64,000 nt of DNA. Origin: Verrucomicrobiota bacterium. Lineage in GTDB: Bacteria; Verrucomicrobiota; Verrucomicrobiia; Limisphaerales; UBA8199. Below, one piece after another: positions 12,382-29,546 of this stretch; position 1 is the first letter of the stretch, and each line of letters begins with the position of its first letter. The DNA is taken from NCBI GenBank assembly GCA_003176045.1, contig PSRM01000108.1:4171-68170 (forward strand), given 5' to 3'. A program made the position numbers and the translations under genes. The notes below the pieces were generated by a model. It was not told the origin of the DNA, did not search any database, and saw only the letters and a list, made by a program, of their open reading frames with translations.

Positions 12382-15300
12382 ATGTTGTTTCAAACTCCTT
12401 TGATTCTCCCGCAGAAACGCGGGACCATACGGCTAAGCCGTGCCACGTTTCACGCTTCACGCATCACGTTTCACGTTTCACGTTTCACCGTTCTCCTCTG
12501 CCTCGCTCTGCTGGTCTGCGCACGCCCAGCCTGTTCGGTGGGCATCTGGGTATCGGTGACCCGCGCGGCTCCTTCGAGCATTGACACCATGCTGCTGATG
12601 GGCGATGGCACCGTCATCGGCGCCAACGGAGGAACGGGATGGTATAAACTCACGCCGGATAGCCTGGGCAGCTACGTCAACGGGACGTGGACGACGGTGG
12701 CGCCGATGAATGATTCGCGCCTTTATTATTCGTCCCAGGTGATGACGGACGGCCGCATGTTTATTGCCGGCGGCGAATACGGCACCGGACTGTGCTCGGG
12801 TGAAGTCTATGACCCGGTGCTCAATCTTTGGGTGTTTTGTCCGGCGTCAGGCCAGCGGTTCTCCGACTCGATCTCGGCCATGGTGCCGAACGGCAACGTG
12901 CTGGTCTCGCCCGTCGGCCCTTCCAGCGGCGGCGGCACCATTTTTTACAATCCGACCTCCAATCTTTGGATAACTGGGCCAAAGCTCTTTCGCGGTGGTT
13001 ATCAGGATGAAGCCAGTTGGGTGAAGCTGCCGGATTCGAGCATCCTGACCGTGGACCCGTTCGGCCAGAACACGGAGCGCTATATTCCGTCCCTGAACCA
13101 ATGGGTCAACGACGCCACCGTGCCCGTGGCACTCTACAACAACCTTGGGGAGCTGGGCCCGGCGTTCCTGTTGCCCAACGGCAAGGTGATCTACATCGGC
13201 GGCACCACCAATACCGCCATTTATACGCCTAGCGGCACCACCAGCCCCGGCAGTTGGGTGGCAGGCCCGGTGATCCCTGGCGGGTTCGGCGCCACGGACG
13301 CCCCCGGAGCGATGATGGTCAACGGCAAGGTGTTGGCCTGCGTGGGCAGCGCTTCAACCTACAACGCTCCCGCTTACTTTTATGAATACGACTCTGTCGC
13401 CAACGCGTTTACTGCCACCGGTTGCCCCGGCAATAACGTCGCCGGCTCAAGTTACAACACCAGCCCGTATGTCCTGCGGATGCTGGCCCTGCCGGATGGC
13501 ACGGTGCTGACGGCGGTTTCGAGTTCGCAGTTGTATGTCTATGTGCCCGATGGCTCGCCGCTGGCCCAAGGCCAGCCGGTCATCAACAGCGTCACCGCCA
13601 ATTACTATCGGTCTTACCACATGACTGGCACGGGCCTGAACGGGATCTCCGAAGGCGCGGCGTATGGGGACGATGCGCAGATGGACAGCAACTATCCGTT
13701 GATCCGGATGACCAACAACACCAGCGGCCTGGTTTATTACGCGCGTTCCTATAACTGGAGCAGCACTTCAGTTATGACCAGCAATACCGTCGTCTCGACT
13801 GACTTCATCCTTCCGGCCTCGCTTCCGACCGGCAGCTACTCGCTGGTCGTGTCTGTCAATGGCAACGCTTCCGCGCCTTATTCATTGTCGTTCACCGCCG
13901 ACCCGCTGACGCTCTCCTCGCAAACAGGGTATAACTCCTCCGGCCCAACCAATGGACCGTTCCTCACCTCGGCCAAGGCCTTTACACTCAACAACACCAG
14001 CGGCAGCCCGTTGAACTGGGCGGCTGGCACGACAGGTTCCTGGCTGGCGCTGAGCCTGGCCGGCGGCACGATTGCCGGTGGAGGTAATGCCAGCGTAACC
14101 GTGAGCAATGCCATCGCGGCCCTGGCCCTGGGCCCCGGCAATTATCCGGGCACCGTTTGGTTCACCAATCTCACCAGCGGCGCCATCCAGTCGGTCCCGT
14201 TTTATTTGCAGGTTTTCCAGAATATCAAGAACCCCGGTTTTGAGACGGGCAGTTCGGGTTACTGGACCTTGAGCGGCACCCCAGGCAATACCTTCGTGGA
14301 TGATCGGACCGATAACAGCGTTTACGTACACTCAGGTTCTTATGCGGCATTCCTGGGGCAGAACACCTCCGGCAACACCTCTTTTGGCTACCTGTCTCAA
14401 ACCGTGCCCACCGGGCCAGGCCTGCAGTACACGCTCTCCTTCTGGCTCAATCATCCGTCGATTGACAGCACTCCGGCCGAGTTCCAGGTGTTTTGGAATG
14501 GGAGCATGATCTTCGACCAGACCTATGCCACCTCCTTCGCTTTCACCAACGTTCACCTGAACGTCACTGCAACAGCCTCTTCGACTTCACTCCAGTTCGG
14601 GTTCCGCAGCAATACAAATTATTTCGGGTTGGACGACGTCGCGCTGACCTCGCTGGCGGTTGGCCCGTCCATCACCGTTCAACCGGCTAACACCGCCGCT
14701 GACCTTGGCCTGAGCGCCAGCTTCTCCGTCACCGCCGGCGGCACCTCGCCCCTGAGCTACCAATGGCGCTTAAACAGCAACTCCATCCCGGGCGCCACTT
14801 CCAATGTCTTTACCCTCAGTAATGTCCAGGCCACCAATGCCGGCTCGTATTCGGTCCTTGTCACCAATCTTTACGGCAGCATCCTCAGCTCCAACGCCCT
14901 GCTCACCGTGCTTGACCCGTTCATCACCAATCAGCCGCAAGGCCAATTCGTGGCTGCCGGCGGCACCGCCACCTTCACCGTCGGCGCCGGAGGCACTTTC
15001 CCGCTGAGTTATCAATGGAAAGAAAACGGCCTCAACCTCACCGACGGTGGGCGCATCAGCGGCTCTCAGACGGCCACGCTCACTATTTCCAATATGCAGT
15101 CTTCAGATGTGGCCAACTACTCGGTGCTGGTGAGCAATACGAATGGTTCGGTCCTCAGTGCCGGCGCGTCGTTGATTGGACCGTTTCCGCCCACGATTGT
15201 GGGCCAACCGGCCAGCCAAACCGTGTTGGCCGGCTCTCTGGTCCCGTTTAGCGTCAGCGCCGCCGGCCCGGCTCCACTGACTTACCAATGGCAGGAACAA

Positions 15301-24261: not shown

Positions 24262-25554
24262 TCAGGGCAGCAACAGTATTTCCGGCCGCAATCTTCCGAC
24301 GAACTGGTGTGGCAGGGCCGGGTCAATGGAGCCGGGGACGAAAGCCTCGGGGGCGACGTGGCCGTCGCAGAAAAGGACGGTGGCTTTTTGGATATGGCGG
24401 AAGTGGGCGTTGGGCGGCTTGATGGTGTTGTCCACGTAATAGAATTCTTCGATCATTGGGTTGGTCGGAGAGGCCGGGGGCTGGAAGGTGTTAATTTGAG
24501 CGGCGTCGGCGAAAAGAGTGATTTGAGAAGTCCGTGTGACCCTCGCGATTTTAATAGCGAGACCATTATTGGTGCCGGAGAGGTAGAGGTTGTAACCGTA
24601 ACCGTAGGAGGCGCCGGTGGCCTTTAGCTTGAATTGCGGCGAGACGTAATCAAAGGAGGGACATAGCTCAACGCCGCGGCCCTTCAAGTATTGGTACAGC
24701 GCTCCAGCAGTGGCATCGAATTGGCGCTGGCCCTCGGCGCCGTCCGAGAGCCAGCCGAACCAGTAGAGCCGTCCTTTGTTTGTCGGCCAGCCGCCGTAGA
24801 GAAAACAGGCGCCGCTGTTGTCTTCCCAATAGAGATTTGCTGCCAGCCCGAGTTGATGGAGGTTGCTGGTGCATTTGATGCGTTGCGCGCGCAGTTTGGA
24901 GCGTGAAAGCGCGGGCAGCAGGAGGGCGGCGAGAACGCCGATGATGGCGATGACGACGAGGAGTTCGATTAACGTGAAAGCGTTGAAATGTTGAAACGTT
25001 AAAACGTTAAAACGTGAAACGTGAAACGTGAAACGTGAAACGTGAAACGTGGTGGGAGTTGCGGATACTGGATACTGGATACTGGATACTGGCTGCTGGA
25101 TGATGTGCCGCTCGAGGCTGCAGCTTTCTGCGAACCGCCGAATCCTTTCTCCACTACCGCAGGCATTTTCGGAATCCGGTTCGGCATAGTCCCGCAGGGA
25201 CGACAGAAAATAGCCCAGCGTTTCAACGCTGGGTTTGTTTCGCGATGTGGGATAAGTCCCGTCAGGGACGGCAGAAAAAAGGCTATTTCTGTCGTCCCTG
25301 CTGGACTCGGCGCCATTGCGACCTCGGTCCCAGCGTTCAAACGCTGGGCTATTTTCTTTCATCCCTACGGGATTCATAAAGTAGGATTTTCGCGGATTTG
25401 CGCAATGCGCGGATATTCGCGCCGAAATGGAATTCGGCGCTCCGAGCTTCCGCCCCTCGCCCTTCGCCCGCGCCCTCGTTTGCCGGTTGAACTTCATCAG
25501 GTCACTACTGGCGGTCCGCACGGATCCTGTAAAGGGCATTTCCTGGTGGCGCAT
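24262..25554 (-). CDS. Prepilin-type N-terminal methylation domain protein of the H-X9-DG (DUF1559-like) class; start codon unresolved
   Basis: [30 protein letters not shown] (codons at ~24900-24984) and C-terminal [17 protein letters not shown]. Everything upstream of ~24985 in the ORF translates tandem and dispersed repeats. Confidence 0.75.
24971..25092. repeat. Two adjacent 7-nt arrays: (acgtgaa) ~11 units (5.5 perfect, 25012-25050) and (gatactg)x4 (25064-25092)
   Basis: Read directly. Same unit family as 12444..12488, in the opposite orientation. Confidence 0.9.
25186..25375. repeat. Dispersed repeat family B (cccagcgtt[tc]aaacgctggg hairpins, gtcccgtcagggacg)
   Basis: Related copies lie at 32870..32970 and 55015..55195. 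Confidence 0.8.
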
Positions 25555-26485
25555 TGGTATCGGACAAAATCATCGAGCCCGTGATTCCCGGCGCCGCCGG
25601 CAAAATCGGCGTCCAGGAACGCAAATCCGCCGTGCGCTCGAGCGTGTAAAGCCAGTTGGTTTGCGCGGTGAATTGCGCGTGCCAGACGGTGTTGCTAAGG
25701 CTGCCGCTCATGTTTTGCACCGGCAAGTCGGTGACGAGTACATTATCAATCGTGCCTTTGGCCAGGATCGAGTCGCCGTAAGTGTCTCCGGCCGCCGAGT
25801 AGCTGCTCACGGCAAAGGTATCGAGTCTGAAATCCGCAGTTGGATTCGCGAAGGCCAACGGCATCGAGGTGTAACGCTGCCCGTTGGTGAGCACGTTGGA
25901 GTGGATATTCGTTTCGCCCGCATAATGGAGCAGTTGCACGCGGTAGGTCACGCCGAGGTTCATGGGCAGGTTGTCGTAAATAAAAAAGAAGCCGTTGCTG
26001 GCATCGGTGAGAGTCGCGGCAATGTTCGGTGTGCCTGCGCCGTCATCCGGAAAATAATCGAATTCAAGCAAGTCGGGACTGTTGCCCAGTGCGCGGGAGA
26101 AATTCGTGCTGGTCGCATCGGCCAAATTGAGAAGGCCGACGCTCACCTCATATACCCCAGTCCATTGAATGTCGCTCAACTGGATATCGAATTGGACCAG
26201 AAAGGCATCGTTGGTGGTGAGCGTCGCTGGGAGAGGATGATAGAAGTAGCTATTGGATTGAGAAGAATCCCAGGTGGCGCGGAGATTCTGGTTGGTGGAG
26301 TCCCATTGGAACAGGTTTGTGTTGCCGAAAGCTTTCCAGCCGCGCGTAGCCGGGTCTGAAGAGAAGTCGTCCTGGAATGTGGCGGCCACGGAAGACAGAG
26401 CGAACAAGAAGGTGGGGATTGCCAATTGCCAATTTCCAATTGCCAATTCCGCCAAGTTCGCGGGTTTTCGATTGAATTGTTGCAT
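25505..26485 (-). CDS. Exported protein with a C-terminal YRIR-tail module
   Basis: [38 protein letters not shown] signal peptide. C-terminus [18 protein letters not shown]...[12 protein letters not shown] resembles the tails of the two giant proteins. Confidence 0.7.
26419..26450. repeat. 7-nt tandem array (ttgccaa) x4.5 inside the leader-coding region of 25505..26485
   Basis: ttgccaa ttgccaa tttccaa ttgccaa ttcc, translated on the minus strand as [11 protein letters not shown]. Confidence 0.9.
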
Positions 26486-26568
26486 GACTGATCTTTCAAT
26501 TTTTGCACCGAATGTTTTCGGGGCAGGGTTTACGATTGAGAGACCAGAGACGGGGGGCGGAAGGGGTA

Positions 26569-26717
26569 AAAACGTTAAAAGGTTAAAAGGTTAAAACGTT
26601 GGAAATTGCTCGGCGCAGGCTTTTGGCCGCCTTTGTCTTTCACTTTGTCTTTCACTTTGTCTTTCAGGGTCGTAACTGAATTCGACAAAGTGAAAGACAA
26701 AGTGAAAGACAAAGTGG
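26569..26717. repeat. (ggttaaa)-type array plus an inverted pair of 12-nt arrays (cactttgtcttt)n / (aaagacaaagtg)n
   Basis: Array at 26569-26600. Arms at 26631-26667 and 26684-26717 with a ~16-nt loop. Confidence 0.9.
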
Positions 26718-27123
26718 CGCTGACCGCCACTTTAGCCTGGCCCAACAAAAAACCCTCATCCCCCGGCAAAACGGAGAATGAAGGCATTCAAGCGAATCCC
26801 AGCGCGCACTCGCGCGAGGGGCTGGCCTCATCCTTCTCTTTGACGGAGAAGTCGGTCGCGCTCGGAAGAGCGGACCGTGACGAGCACAACCAGACCGGTA
26901 TCCTGACTTGGGGCTTCGCCTCACTCCCGCCTTCCCGCTCCGTTTCTTCCATGAAGCGACGCAGCAGTGGCAGTGGGAGTTTGTAGCCCGTTACAGTGGC
27001 GCAACCGTCCTCGATTCTCACGAGGTTCCCTGACGCCTGGCTATGGTAAGAGATGGACCAAACGATCCATCGCTGTCAAAGAACGAGTGGAATCTACGAC
27101 GAAGCCAAGAACGAGACAACTGA

Positions 27124-27374: not shown

Positions 27375-29546
27375 CTAACCGCCCGATTTCTCCTTCGCGG
27401 TTTCAATCGGGAGAGAGATGCGGACGAGGCCGGACTGGCCGGGCTGGGGTGGGACGACTTCGAGTTTGCCGTGGTGGGTTTCGATGATTTTGCGGCTGAC
27501 AGCCAGACCCAGGCCAAGGCCGACGTTTCGGGTGGTGAAGAATGGCGTGCCAGCTTTTTGGGCGGCCTCAGGAGAAAAGCCGCTGCCGTTGTCCTGCACT
27601 TCGACCTGGAGTCCGGGCTGACCGTTACCGTTGGATTGGGCCTGCAGGCGCACACCGACTTTGGGGTCGGCCGGATTGGCCTGGAGGGCGTTGAGCATGA
27701 CCTCGGCAAGGGCGTGCTTGATGGCAGCGCGGTCGCCCGTGACGGCGACCGGCTTGAGACCGGCTTCGTACTTAAGCTGCGCTTTGGCGGCATGATCTTT
27801 GGCGGTTTGGTTAGCGTATTTGCGCGCTTCCTGATAGGCCTCTTCGAGGACGGGCGCCAGGGGAAAAGGTTCCTGCGAAAGAACAGTGTCGCGGGCGAGG
27901 TAACGCATCTGATTGACCAGGCGCGTGACGCGCTCAACGCCGTGGGCCATGGCCCCAAGCCATGCCCGAGACTCGGTATCCTTAGATTTTTCGGCCAATA
28001 ATTGCTGATGAATGCCGACCGGCACCATGGCGTTGCCAAGCTCGTGCGCCAGCCGTTCGGCGGTGGTCTTGACCAGGCGCAAATTGGCGGCCTCGATTTC
28101 CAGGGACTGCAATTGGCGGCTTTGAGTAACGTCCTCGGCCATCATCAGGACCGAGGCAGGCAATCCGGCGGAGGGCCGCTGGAAGGGCACGATGCTTACG
28201 TTGTAAATCGAGCCCGGAGCAGTTTCGGGCTCATACTTCGTCGAGATGCCGGCGCCGGTTTTTAGGACCTGATAGATCTTTGCGCCGAGGGCCTGGGGCA
28301 GATCGCTGAATTGCAGTTCGGCGCCACGGCTGTGGGAAGAGCCGAAATAGCGACGGGCCATTTTGTTGGCGTGCAGGATGTCCAACTCGCGGCTGACCAC
28401 GACGCAAGCGCTGCTGAGTTCGCGCAGGATGCCCGCCAGCATTTCGTGGTTGGAGGAGAGCTGGTCGTGCAGCCAGATATTCTTGATTGCAAGGCCCAAC
28501 TGTTCCAGCAGGTGGAAAATCAGCTCCAGCTCGGGATTAACCAGCGGTTCACCGGTGATTCGCGCGTCGAAAACGGCCACACCCAGGACGGTTTCGCGGT
28601 CCAGGATGGGAACAGCCACCTGTGCGCCTAATAGCTCGAATTCCTTTTGCGCTTCAGGATCGTTGCGGGCCTCGTCGCTGTGCCGCCGTAAAATCCGGCC
28701 CAGGCGCAATAATTGCGCGCCGATGCCGGCGTCAAAGGAAAGCTCGAAATGCTGGAGCAACCCGGCGGCCATGCCGACGGCGCTGGCGGCGCGAAGGCGA
28801 CGGCTTTCGGCCGCGGCAGTGGCGCCTCCGAAGGAGGTGGGCGCATGGCGCAGGAAGATGGCCGCGCGATTGATGCTGAGAAGTTGGCGGAGGAGGAGAA
28901 GGAATTGCTTGAGCATCCCTTCGGCGTTCAGGGAGTGGGTCAGGATGCCTGAAAAGTCGCGAAGGACGGTGAGGGTTTGAGGGGTCACACCAGCGCCAAA
29001 GGCGAGGGTCGAGGGTCGAGGGTCGAGGGTCGAGTGGCGGGGGAAGAAGGCGGAGGAGGCGAGGAACTCTGTTGAAGTGGGTGTGATGGCCGGTGGGCTC
29101 GTGCTGGACGCTTGGCACGGGCTGGACGCTTGGCCCGAGCCGGGCAGGCCTTCACGCGCGCGGCTCTGATCGGAGAGCCTTTCGAGCAGGGCGGTGAGCA
29201 CTTTTCCGCGCACGGGCTTGGATAAGACATGAGACACCCCCCGCAAATAGGCCTCTTCCTCCCATTCCCAGGGTTTTTGGGCGGTATAGAGGATGAGGGG
29301 GCAGCGGGGCGCGCGTTGGCGCAGTTTCTCCACCAGCCAGATGCCCTGCACGGTGGTGACTTCGACATCGAGGATGCAGACCTCGGCCAGGGCGTTGACC
29401 AGGAAGGGTTCGGCGTCCTCCAGGCGGGAGCGATGGATCACCCGATAGCGCTCCGGGTCCAGGTTCGCGCGGACTGTTTCAGCGAAATCCGGATGCTCGG
29501 CCAGCACCAATAACGTTTTCATCGCACTCTTACTGCTGTTGGGCAC
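27375..29546 (-). CDS. Sensor histidine kinase with N-terminal receiver-like domain, GAF and PAS regions
   Basis: REC-like N-terminus (KTLLVLAEHPD, ILDVEV, LSKP), H-box ERLAHELGNAMVP, ATPase boxes MLNALQA, QDNGSGF and GLGLGLAVSRKI. Confidence 0.85.
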   Translation of the reverse strand: MPNSSKSAMKTLLVLAEHPDFAETVRANLDPERYRVIHRSRLEDAEPFLVNALAEVCILDVEVTTVQGIWLVEKLRQRAPRCPLILYTAQKPWEWEEEAYLRGVSHVLSKPVRGKVLTALLERLSDQSRAREGLPGSGQASSPCQASSTSPPAITPTSTEFLASSAFFPRHSTLDPRPSTLAFGAGVTPQTLTVLRDFSGILTHSLNAEGMLKQFLLLLRQLLSINRAAIFLRHAPTSFGGATAAAESRRLRAASAVGMAAGLLQHFELSFDAGIGAQLLRLGRILRRHSDEARNDPEAQKEFELLGAQVAVPILDRETVLGVAVFDARITGEPLVNPELELIFHLLEQLGLAIKNIWLHDQLSSNHEMLAGILRELSSACVVVSRELDILHANKMARRYFGSSHSRGAELQFSDLPQALGAKIYQVLKTGAGISTKYEPETAPGSIYNVSIVPFQRPSAGLPASVLMMAEDVTQSRQLQSLEIEAANLRLVKTTAERLAHELGNAMVPVGIHQQLLAEKSKDTESRAWLGAMAHGVERVTRLVNQMRYLARDTVLSQEPFPLAPVLEEAYQEARKYANQTAKDHAAKAQLKYEAGLKPVAVTGDRAAIKHALAEVMLNALQANPADPKVGVRLQAQSNGNGQPGLQVEVQDNGSGFSPEAAQKAGTPFFTTRNVGLGLGLAVSRKIIETHHGKLEVVPPQPGQSGLVRISLPIETAKEKSGG
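29004..29034. repeat. 7-nt perfect tandem array (gagggtc) x4.4 inside the kinase ORF
   Basis: Read directly. Translated as STLDPRPSTL in the REC-GAF linker. Confidence 0.9.

Follow-up and report, generated by a model that had tools for sequence, protein, structure and literature searches.

A conserved gene for an exported protein carries, within the sequence for its signal peptide, a heptanucleotide array (26418-26448, minus strand). This array is probably one copy of a module roughly 32 nt long that is dispersed through the genome; in this reading it has been kept in frame within a cleavable leader. The window in which it lies is a stretch of 64,000 nucleotides from a Verrucomicrobiota (Limisphaerales) genome. 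In the model we favor, the module consists of four to five heptamer units, here of the AATTGCC family, and is one of around a thousand such modules in the genome, most of them at gene boundaries. The focal copy lengthens the signal-peptide sequence by about 10 codons, placed after the charged n-region and ahead of the hydrophobic core, and its survival would reflect a frame that is kept, the absence of a stop codon, a neutral to hydrophobic encoded peptide and a leader that is cleaved after export. It is plausible that arrays arise or land everywhere and persist only in tolerant places, namely spacers, leaders and linkers; the same filter of tolerance would then account for the two companion arrays in the window and for 123 in-frame arrays in other genes. 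We infer the neutrality of the focal array, the cleavage of its leader and the copying process that spreads the modules.

Tandem Repeats Finder (TRF) places the focal array at 26418-26448 with a period of 7, 4.4 copies, 91% matches and a score of 55. On the coding (minus) strand the units read AATTGGC, AATTGGA, AATTGGC and AATTGGC, followed by a partial AAT, with one mismatch. A search for (AATTGGC)x4 that allowed up to 3 mismatches gave this site as its sole match in the window (minus strand, 26421-26448, 1 mismatch), and none of 100 dinucleotide-preserving shuffles produced a match. The longest perfect run within the tract is 17 nt, or 2.4 units. In the open reading frame at 25505-26485 (minus strand) the array forms codons 11/12 to 23, between the ATG at 26485 and the hydrophobic core. 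The original prediction had placed an array between this ATG and the signal core, and both its coordinates and its translation are borne out by TRF and by translation of the frame.

Orthologues from four other genera can be aligned, in their start regions, with the roughly 60 nt on the 5' side of ATG 26485, and the DNA alignment contains a conserved element directly 5' of the ATG (CTGGTCTCTCAAT...TTGAAAGATCAGyC). As this upstream element and its stem-loop are kept in all four genera, ATG 26485 is the ancestral start, and the focal array is most probably translated. Between Met1 and the first invariant mature residue (F41) the protein has 41 aa, against a median of 27 (range 25-31) among 19 homologues; the leader exceeds theirs by 10-16 aa, which argues that the array is a translated insertion of around 10 codons. 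Relative to the closest homologue, P0008, the leader is longer by 10 aa (30 nt), roughly one 31-nt module. The C-terminal half of the leader is homologous between the two proteins (ALSSVAA/TFQDDFS here, AVSSLGA/TFQEDFS in P0008, the slash marking the putative cleavage site), and the surplus residues are those encoded by the array. A 31-nt module alone cannot insert in frame, so that either a 1-nt adjustment or the partial replacement of older sequence must be assumed.

Alignment with the 19 homologues delimits the signal-peptide coding region to 26381-26485 (minus strand; residues 1-35), comprising n-region, array-coded segment and h-region. Together with a hydrophobicity heuristic, the alignment identifies a charged n-region (R6, K7), an h-region and a VAA/TF site, and cleavage after VAA is likely, judging from the homologous SSLGA/TFQEDF of P0008. 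The AlphaFold model has pLDDT values of <50 for residues 1-33, followed by a confident beta-sandwich body, in keeping with a leader that can be detached.

Matches to (CACGTTT)x3, a repeat of the commonest unit, number 271 in this genome, 225 in the related genome G021, 35 in G003 and 23 in G024, and are absent from 32 of the 40 related genomes searched; a reversed control pattern is absent from all but one. Amplification of CACGTTT is thus patchy among the genera of the family. At the orthologous locus of G021 there is no tandem repeat, the leader has a normal length of 20-odd aa and the ATG of the partner gene overlaps the stop codon. G021 is itself rich in heptamer arrays. The module at 26418 is thus a lineage-specific gain. 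A scan of metagenome contigs with the exact flanks of the focal tract and a variable gap gave no match. The 90% cluster of the focal protein has a single member, and its nearest homologue is 60% identical.

The gene that carries the array (25505-26485, minus strand) encodes a conserved exported protein of 326 aa, in which the structural model shows a ConA-like beta-sandwich and a C-terminal beta-sandwich. A Pfam search with this protein gave no family match; Foldseek on the model returned lectins and PL-family lyases, consistent with a mature part of the ConA-like lectin/glucanase beta-sandwich type. It has a match in 36 of 41 related genomes from the same family or order and 1802 homologues at E<=1e-20, named as Verrucomicrobiota or Limisphaerales in their sources. 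Upstream, at 26876-27055 (minus strand), lies a cobalamin riboswitch aptamer (Rfam RF00174, 73 bits, E=7e-17), which is also present at 10 of 11 orthologous loci from other genera. The exported-protein gene is the first gene behind the riboswitch and is controlled by it. A terminator scan found a hairpin at 26752-26785 (minus strand) with a 14-pair stem followed by TTTTTG, which is probably the expression platform of the riboswitch. A second, conserved stem-loop, identified by cross-genus DNA alignment and RNA folding at 26488-26547 (minus strand), ends at the start codon (CUGGUCUCUCAAU ... AUUGAAAGAUCAG). The 166-nt stretch that contains it has an RNA fold z-score of -2.8 with predicted pairing to the start region, and the stem-loop may form the translational part of the expression platform.

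Further arrays detected by TRF occupy the 5' leader of this transcript at 26565-26716 (minus strand): one with an 8-nt unit (26565-26600) and two with a 12-nt unit (26631-26666 and 26684-26716) that form an inverted pair. With them the aptamer lies 391 nt from the ATG, compared with about 230-240 nt in three orthologues, and the start-codon stem-loop and the aptamer are separated here by some 150 nt of inserted 8-nt and 12-nt arrays. The exported-protein gene is always followed by a DUF1559 or prepilin-type partner, both in the window (24262-27055, minus strand) and at the orthologous loci L003-L012. This looks like an undescribed, B12-regulated pair of exported proteins, and our literature search found nothing on a gene pair controlled in this way. 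Two Acido-Lenti-1 RNA motifs (RF01687; 61 and 57 bits) occur in the operon between its two genes, at 25188-25233 (minus strand) and 25329-25374 (plus strand). They are in opposite orientation, and copies also occur near the orthologous locus L004.

The assembly, a metagenome-assembled genome of 86% completeness, comprises 7.74 Mb in 372 contigs at 57% GC; genes were called with our own hexamer caller (4534 genes, 77% coding), and the start and hydrophobic-leader calls likewise come from simple models of our own. Period 7 dominates its tandem repeats, with 3125 of the 9635 TRF rows and 2462 perfect tracts, compared with 469, 758 and 263 perfect tracts for periods 5, 6 and 8. Strong heptamer arrays, defined by at least 4 copies and a score of at least 50, number 946 and fall into 72 unit families, the top four of which supply 442. 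Of the 946, 564 (60%) fall between genes, in non-coding DNA that makes up 23% of the genome. Both the genome-wide excess of period 7 and the recurrence of few units at many, mainly intergenic loci are as in heptanucleotide repeats of the long-SSR/STRR type.

The lengths of these arrays are narrowly distributed. Across all heptamer families they peak at 28-35 nt with a mode of about 32 nt, and perfect heptamer tracts become far fewer above 33-34 nt, with 87 of 32 nt and 14 of 35 nt. Arrays of period 6 and period 12 show the same peak at 28-35 nt, and a length peak that is independent of unit size suggests a fixed-size module rather than open-ended slippage. The AATTGCC family, to which the focal array belongs, has 15 arrays of at least 3.5 copies, all of them 29-33 nt long. 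An ATTTCC variant unit recurs in seven of the 15 and mostly stands next to last, where the focal copy has it too; this shared derived variant argues that the arrays of the family are copies of a common template and not products of local slippage.

Only 136 of the 946 strong arrays are paired with an inverted array at most 300 nt away. In the list for 20-30 kb of the window, no inverted partner of its unit lies near the focal array, which in this respect lacks the inverted-repeat (hairpin) architecture of a REP/REPIN-like element. The S23p family (23S-rRNA intervening-sequence protein, PF05635) has 21 matches in the genome (for example C51:17497-17727 and C187:6242-6559). Inverted arrays of the same unit bracket only 5 of 20 checked S23p genes, and arrays of any kind flank 10.7% of small control genes; as evidence for an origin of the arrays from S23p cassettes this is suggestive, not decisive.

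What is non-random in the placement of the arrays is their strict polarity with respect to genes. There are 108 arrays that start within 10 nt after a called stop codon and 64 that end within 10 nt before a called start, the latter count possibly inflated by our own start calls. For the commonest unit, all 48 arrays at 5' gene ends have CACGTTT on the coding strand, and 34 of the 36 at 3' ends have AAACGTG there. AAACACC is similarly polar (1:42 and 8:0), as are most unit families, and in inverted pairs the A-rich arm nearly always comes first (37:0 and 22:1). The focal array obeys this polarity: lying at a 5' end, it has AATTGGC as its coding-strand unit, and at five other loci it is AATTGCC that comes after a stop codon. 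Such strict 5'/3' polarity suggests that the arrays are not purely passive. One candidate role, that of supplying Shine-Dalgarno sequences at a fixed spacing, was rejected: distances from array to start are broad, many of them 50-200 nt, and only a subset fall at 0-10 nt.

A more far-reaching reading of the heptamer arrays, which we put forward tentatively and consider rather unlikely, is that they are no debris of slippage but the product of an active process, specific to each unit family. It would deposit modules about 32 nt long next to gene ends, always oriented the same way relative to transcription, with one strand used at 5' ends and the complementary one at 3' ends. In Limisphaerales proteins these would be a steady supply of new peptide sequence, in the form of extended signal and prepilin leaders, N-terminal tags and inter-domain linkers. 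A minority of arrays, possibly including the focal one, would then act as rare switches of frame or length.

It is also conceivable, if doubtful, that the focal array has been co-opted, with the extra residues tuning the signal peptide through a longer h-region or signal-anchor, or with an RNA hairpin of the array, close behind the start codon, modulating translation of the riboswitch-controlled mRNA. The unit does contain the palindrome CAATTG, the array forms a hairpin in the predicted mRNA structure, the extended hydrophobic stretch amounts to 25 aa and, as described above, the array fits the genome-wide rule for 5' ends. Yet no homologue carries such an extension, the same module also occurs at plainly non-coding places, and arrays inside genes are indistinguishable from intergenic ones, neither length nor perfection differing between the two sets. 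Array length modulo 3 did not differ between them either (P=0.71), with TRF boundaries too fuzzy for this comparison.

Two further arrays in the window share the geometry of the focal one. At 12444-12488 (plus strand) TRF finds 6.4 copies of CACGTTT, which are translated between ATG 12382 and the h-region of a 1619-aa surface protein; the array comes after all in-frame starts (ATG 12382 and the TTG codons 2 and 7) and before the hydrophobic core. At 24971-25101 (minus strand) two heptamer arrays, TCACGTT x10.9 and AGTATCC x5.6 on the coding strand, directly precede the FTLIELL motif of the prepilin-like gene, and no in-frame ATG, GTG or TTG occurs between the arrays at 24971-25051 and this motif. 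Inspection of start codons at both sites thus agrees with the earlier proposal that they share the order start, array, core. The arrays at 12444 and 24971 both belong to the AAACGTG family, the commonest in the genome with 135 arrays. A heptamer array also lies in frame at 29003-29034, inside a sensor-kinase gene.

The prepilin-like partner (24978-25497, minus strand) has no start codon near FTLIELL, and ATG 25497, which is in frame with the motif, lies 7 nt after the stop codon of the upstream gene. The 173 codons from this ATG to FTLIELL are free of stops despite two Acido-Lenti-1 motifs and two heptamer arrays, and the Pfam N_methyl match covers residues 191-213 of the long frame. Leaders of prepilin-like orthologues have 15-28 aa. 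Because a random intergenic frame of 150 codons in this genome has a chance of about 4% of being open as well, translation of the giant leader is only suggested.

The three leader arrays of the window had led to the original prediction that non-triplet arrays occupy the leaders of exported-protein genes non-randomly. Within the window the rate is indeed high, with a leader array in 3 of about 12 genes with hydrophobic N-termini compared with about 3% genome-wide; two of the three share one repeat-dense operon. The layout itself recurs across the genome. Among arrays with a strongly hydrophobic segment no more than 22 aa downstream and coding sequence after it, the sole in-frame start lay upstream of the array in 30 cases and inside it in 11; in 35 a start followed the array and in 3 no start was found.

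A special link to exported proteins was not supported. We defined must-be-translated N-terminal arrays as those with no in-frame start in at least the 20 codons after the array, that stretch scoring as coding. A hydrophobic segment follows 9 of 19 such arrays against a background of 32% (P=0.15), and the addition of one Tat-like and one lipoprotein-like case by eye would bring this to 11 of 19, a modest enrichment at best. Other translated N-terminal arrays precede cytoplasmic enzymes, among them a synthetase-like protein with an HLGH motif and a GxxGxxG Rossmann enzyme. The leader position is therefore not clearly special to exported proteins. Array density is about 320 per Mb in intergenic sequence, 30-70 in the first 40 codons and about 50 deeper in genes; the first 40 codons are thus similar to deeper positions and several-fold poorer in arrays than the DNA between genes.

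Non-triplet repeats in a 5' coding region raise the question of phase variation, and the frames of in-gene arrays bear on it directly. Using a two-sided test, in which coding potential was scored in 240 nt on each side and on the same strand (by hexamer potential and stop codons only), we found 123 arrays that have coding sequence on both sides and are in frame and open, 1 that is out of frame and 2 with a stop. A frameshift of the off state would have counted as out of frame in this test. Leader arrays give a similar picture, with 41 usable and 3 possibly off. There is no sign of switching in the array class; only arrays that spare their genes have been kept by selection. Within genes, arrays are read on the strand that yields hydrophilic linker peptides, as for AAAGTCC (21:0 sense to antisense, read as SPKSKVQ). 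The roughly 123 in-gene arrays encode peptides with a period of seven residues, for example SPKSKVQ and ETPNTKHQ, and the strand is almost always the hydrophilic one.

We consider it unlikely that the focal array is a slipped-strand contingency switch, in which gain or loss of one 7-nt unit would shift the frame and turn the exported protein off or on, as in neuO or opa. As in a contingency locus, a non-triplet tandem repeat does lie inside the 5' coding region of an exported-protein gene, the geometry at 12444 and 24971 is alike, and neuO shows that a heptanucleotide repeat in such a position can switch (PMC13001214). The tract is, however, not long and uninterrupted, having only 4.4 units with one interruption and a longest perfect run of 17 nt, whereas neuO most commonly has 20 repeats (PMC13001214). 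Off alleles are not frequent in the class as tested within one genome (the 123:1 and 41:3 above), and array lengths are modal at about 32 nt instead of broadly spread. The focal array is, moreover, one of several copies of a dispersed module that have an internal variant in common, and its gene already has a dedicated regulator in the cobalamin riboswitch.

That the array is untranslated 5' UTR, with the true start at TTG 26425 in the last unit or at another downstream codon, is extremely improbable: most 5'-end arrays do sit upstream of a start and in-frame TTG codons are present at 26455, 26446 and 26425, but ATG 26485 and the 60 nt before it align with orthologous starts in four other genera, initiation at 26425 would leave a signal peptide of 15 aa without a charged n-region, and all 19 homologues start with M(K/R)-rich n-regions. 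We accordingly reject a downstream start on the conserved context of ATG 26485. Retention of a translated module in the leader remains the reading that we prefer.

The focal array belongs to the known heptanucleotide long SSRs of bacteria. Heptanucleotides are over-represented among such repeats (Mrazek et al. 2007), with cyanobacterial heptamers in Calothrix and Nostoc and GGGAATC arrays in Xanthomonas as described cases (PMC4692102). The arrays analyzed here resemble these in their 7-nt units, the strong heptamer excess, a mostly intergenic location with some inverted pairs, and the presence of few unit families at many unrelated loci with some overlap of open reading frames. They differ in that their units are not G-rich or quadruplex-forming, that a size of about 32 nt is favored, that polarity relative to 5' and 3' gene ends is strict and that more than 120 arrays in this genome are translated in frame. 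In the literature consulted on heptanucleotide repeats we found no description of the 32-nt size, the polarity, in-frame translation or this phylum, and a literature search for heptamer arrays in Verrucomicrobia found no paper describing them.

Among switching systems, neuO of the E. coli K1 prophage CUS-3 carries (AAGACTC)n in its 5' coding region, with 3-53 repeats of which 20 is the commonest number; 66% of sequenced genomes are phase-off and tracts are polymorphic within cultures (PMC13001214). The focal array shares with neuO a translated 5' heptanucleotide repeat and a frame that is kept only at certain repeat numbers, and is unlike its long, perfect tracts in being short and interrupted and in belonging to a class whose members are hardly ever found out of frame. 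The opa genes of Neisseria, a host-adapted pathogen, carry CTCTT pentamer repeats in the signal-peptide coding region, in long perfect tracts with high-frequency slippage. Here too the repeat is non-triplet and separates the start codon from the hydrophobic core of the signal peptide, whereas the focal tract is short and interrupted. A third likeness is to REP/REPIN and MITE-like repeats, which are likewise short modules of fixed size with hundreds of copies at gene boundaries, partly in inverted hairpin pairs; the present modules are instead internally tandem heptamer words and mostly unpaired (the 136 of 946 noted above). No dedicated transposase for the modules was identified in the genome.

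Taken together, the switch-like repeats in three exported-protein genes of the window are better explained by a genome-wide repeat load combined with selection for frame and tolerance, and they serve as a caution: in environmental genomes that are rich in repeats, geometry by itself is no sufficient ground for calling phase variation. The fixed size of about 32 nt, the polarity and the patchy spread of units among genera point to a generating mechanism behind the heptamer repeats long noted in bacteria. Repeat modules that enter cleavable leaders and linkers are absorbed there and in this way become protein sequence.
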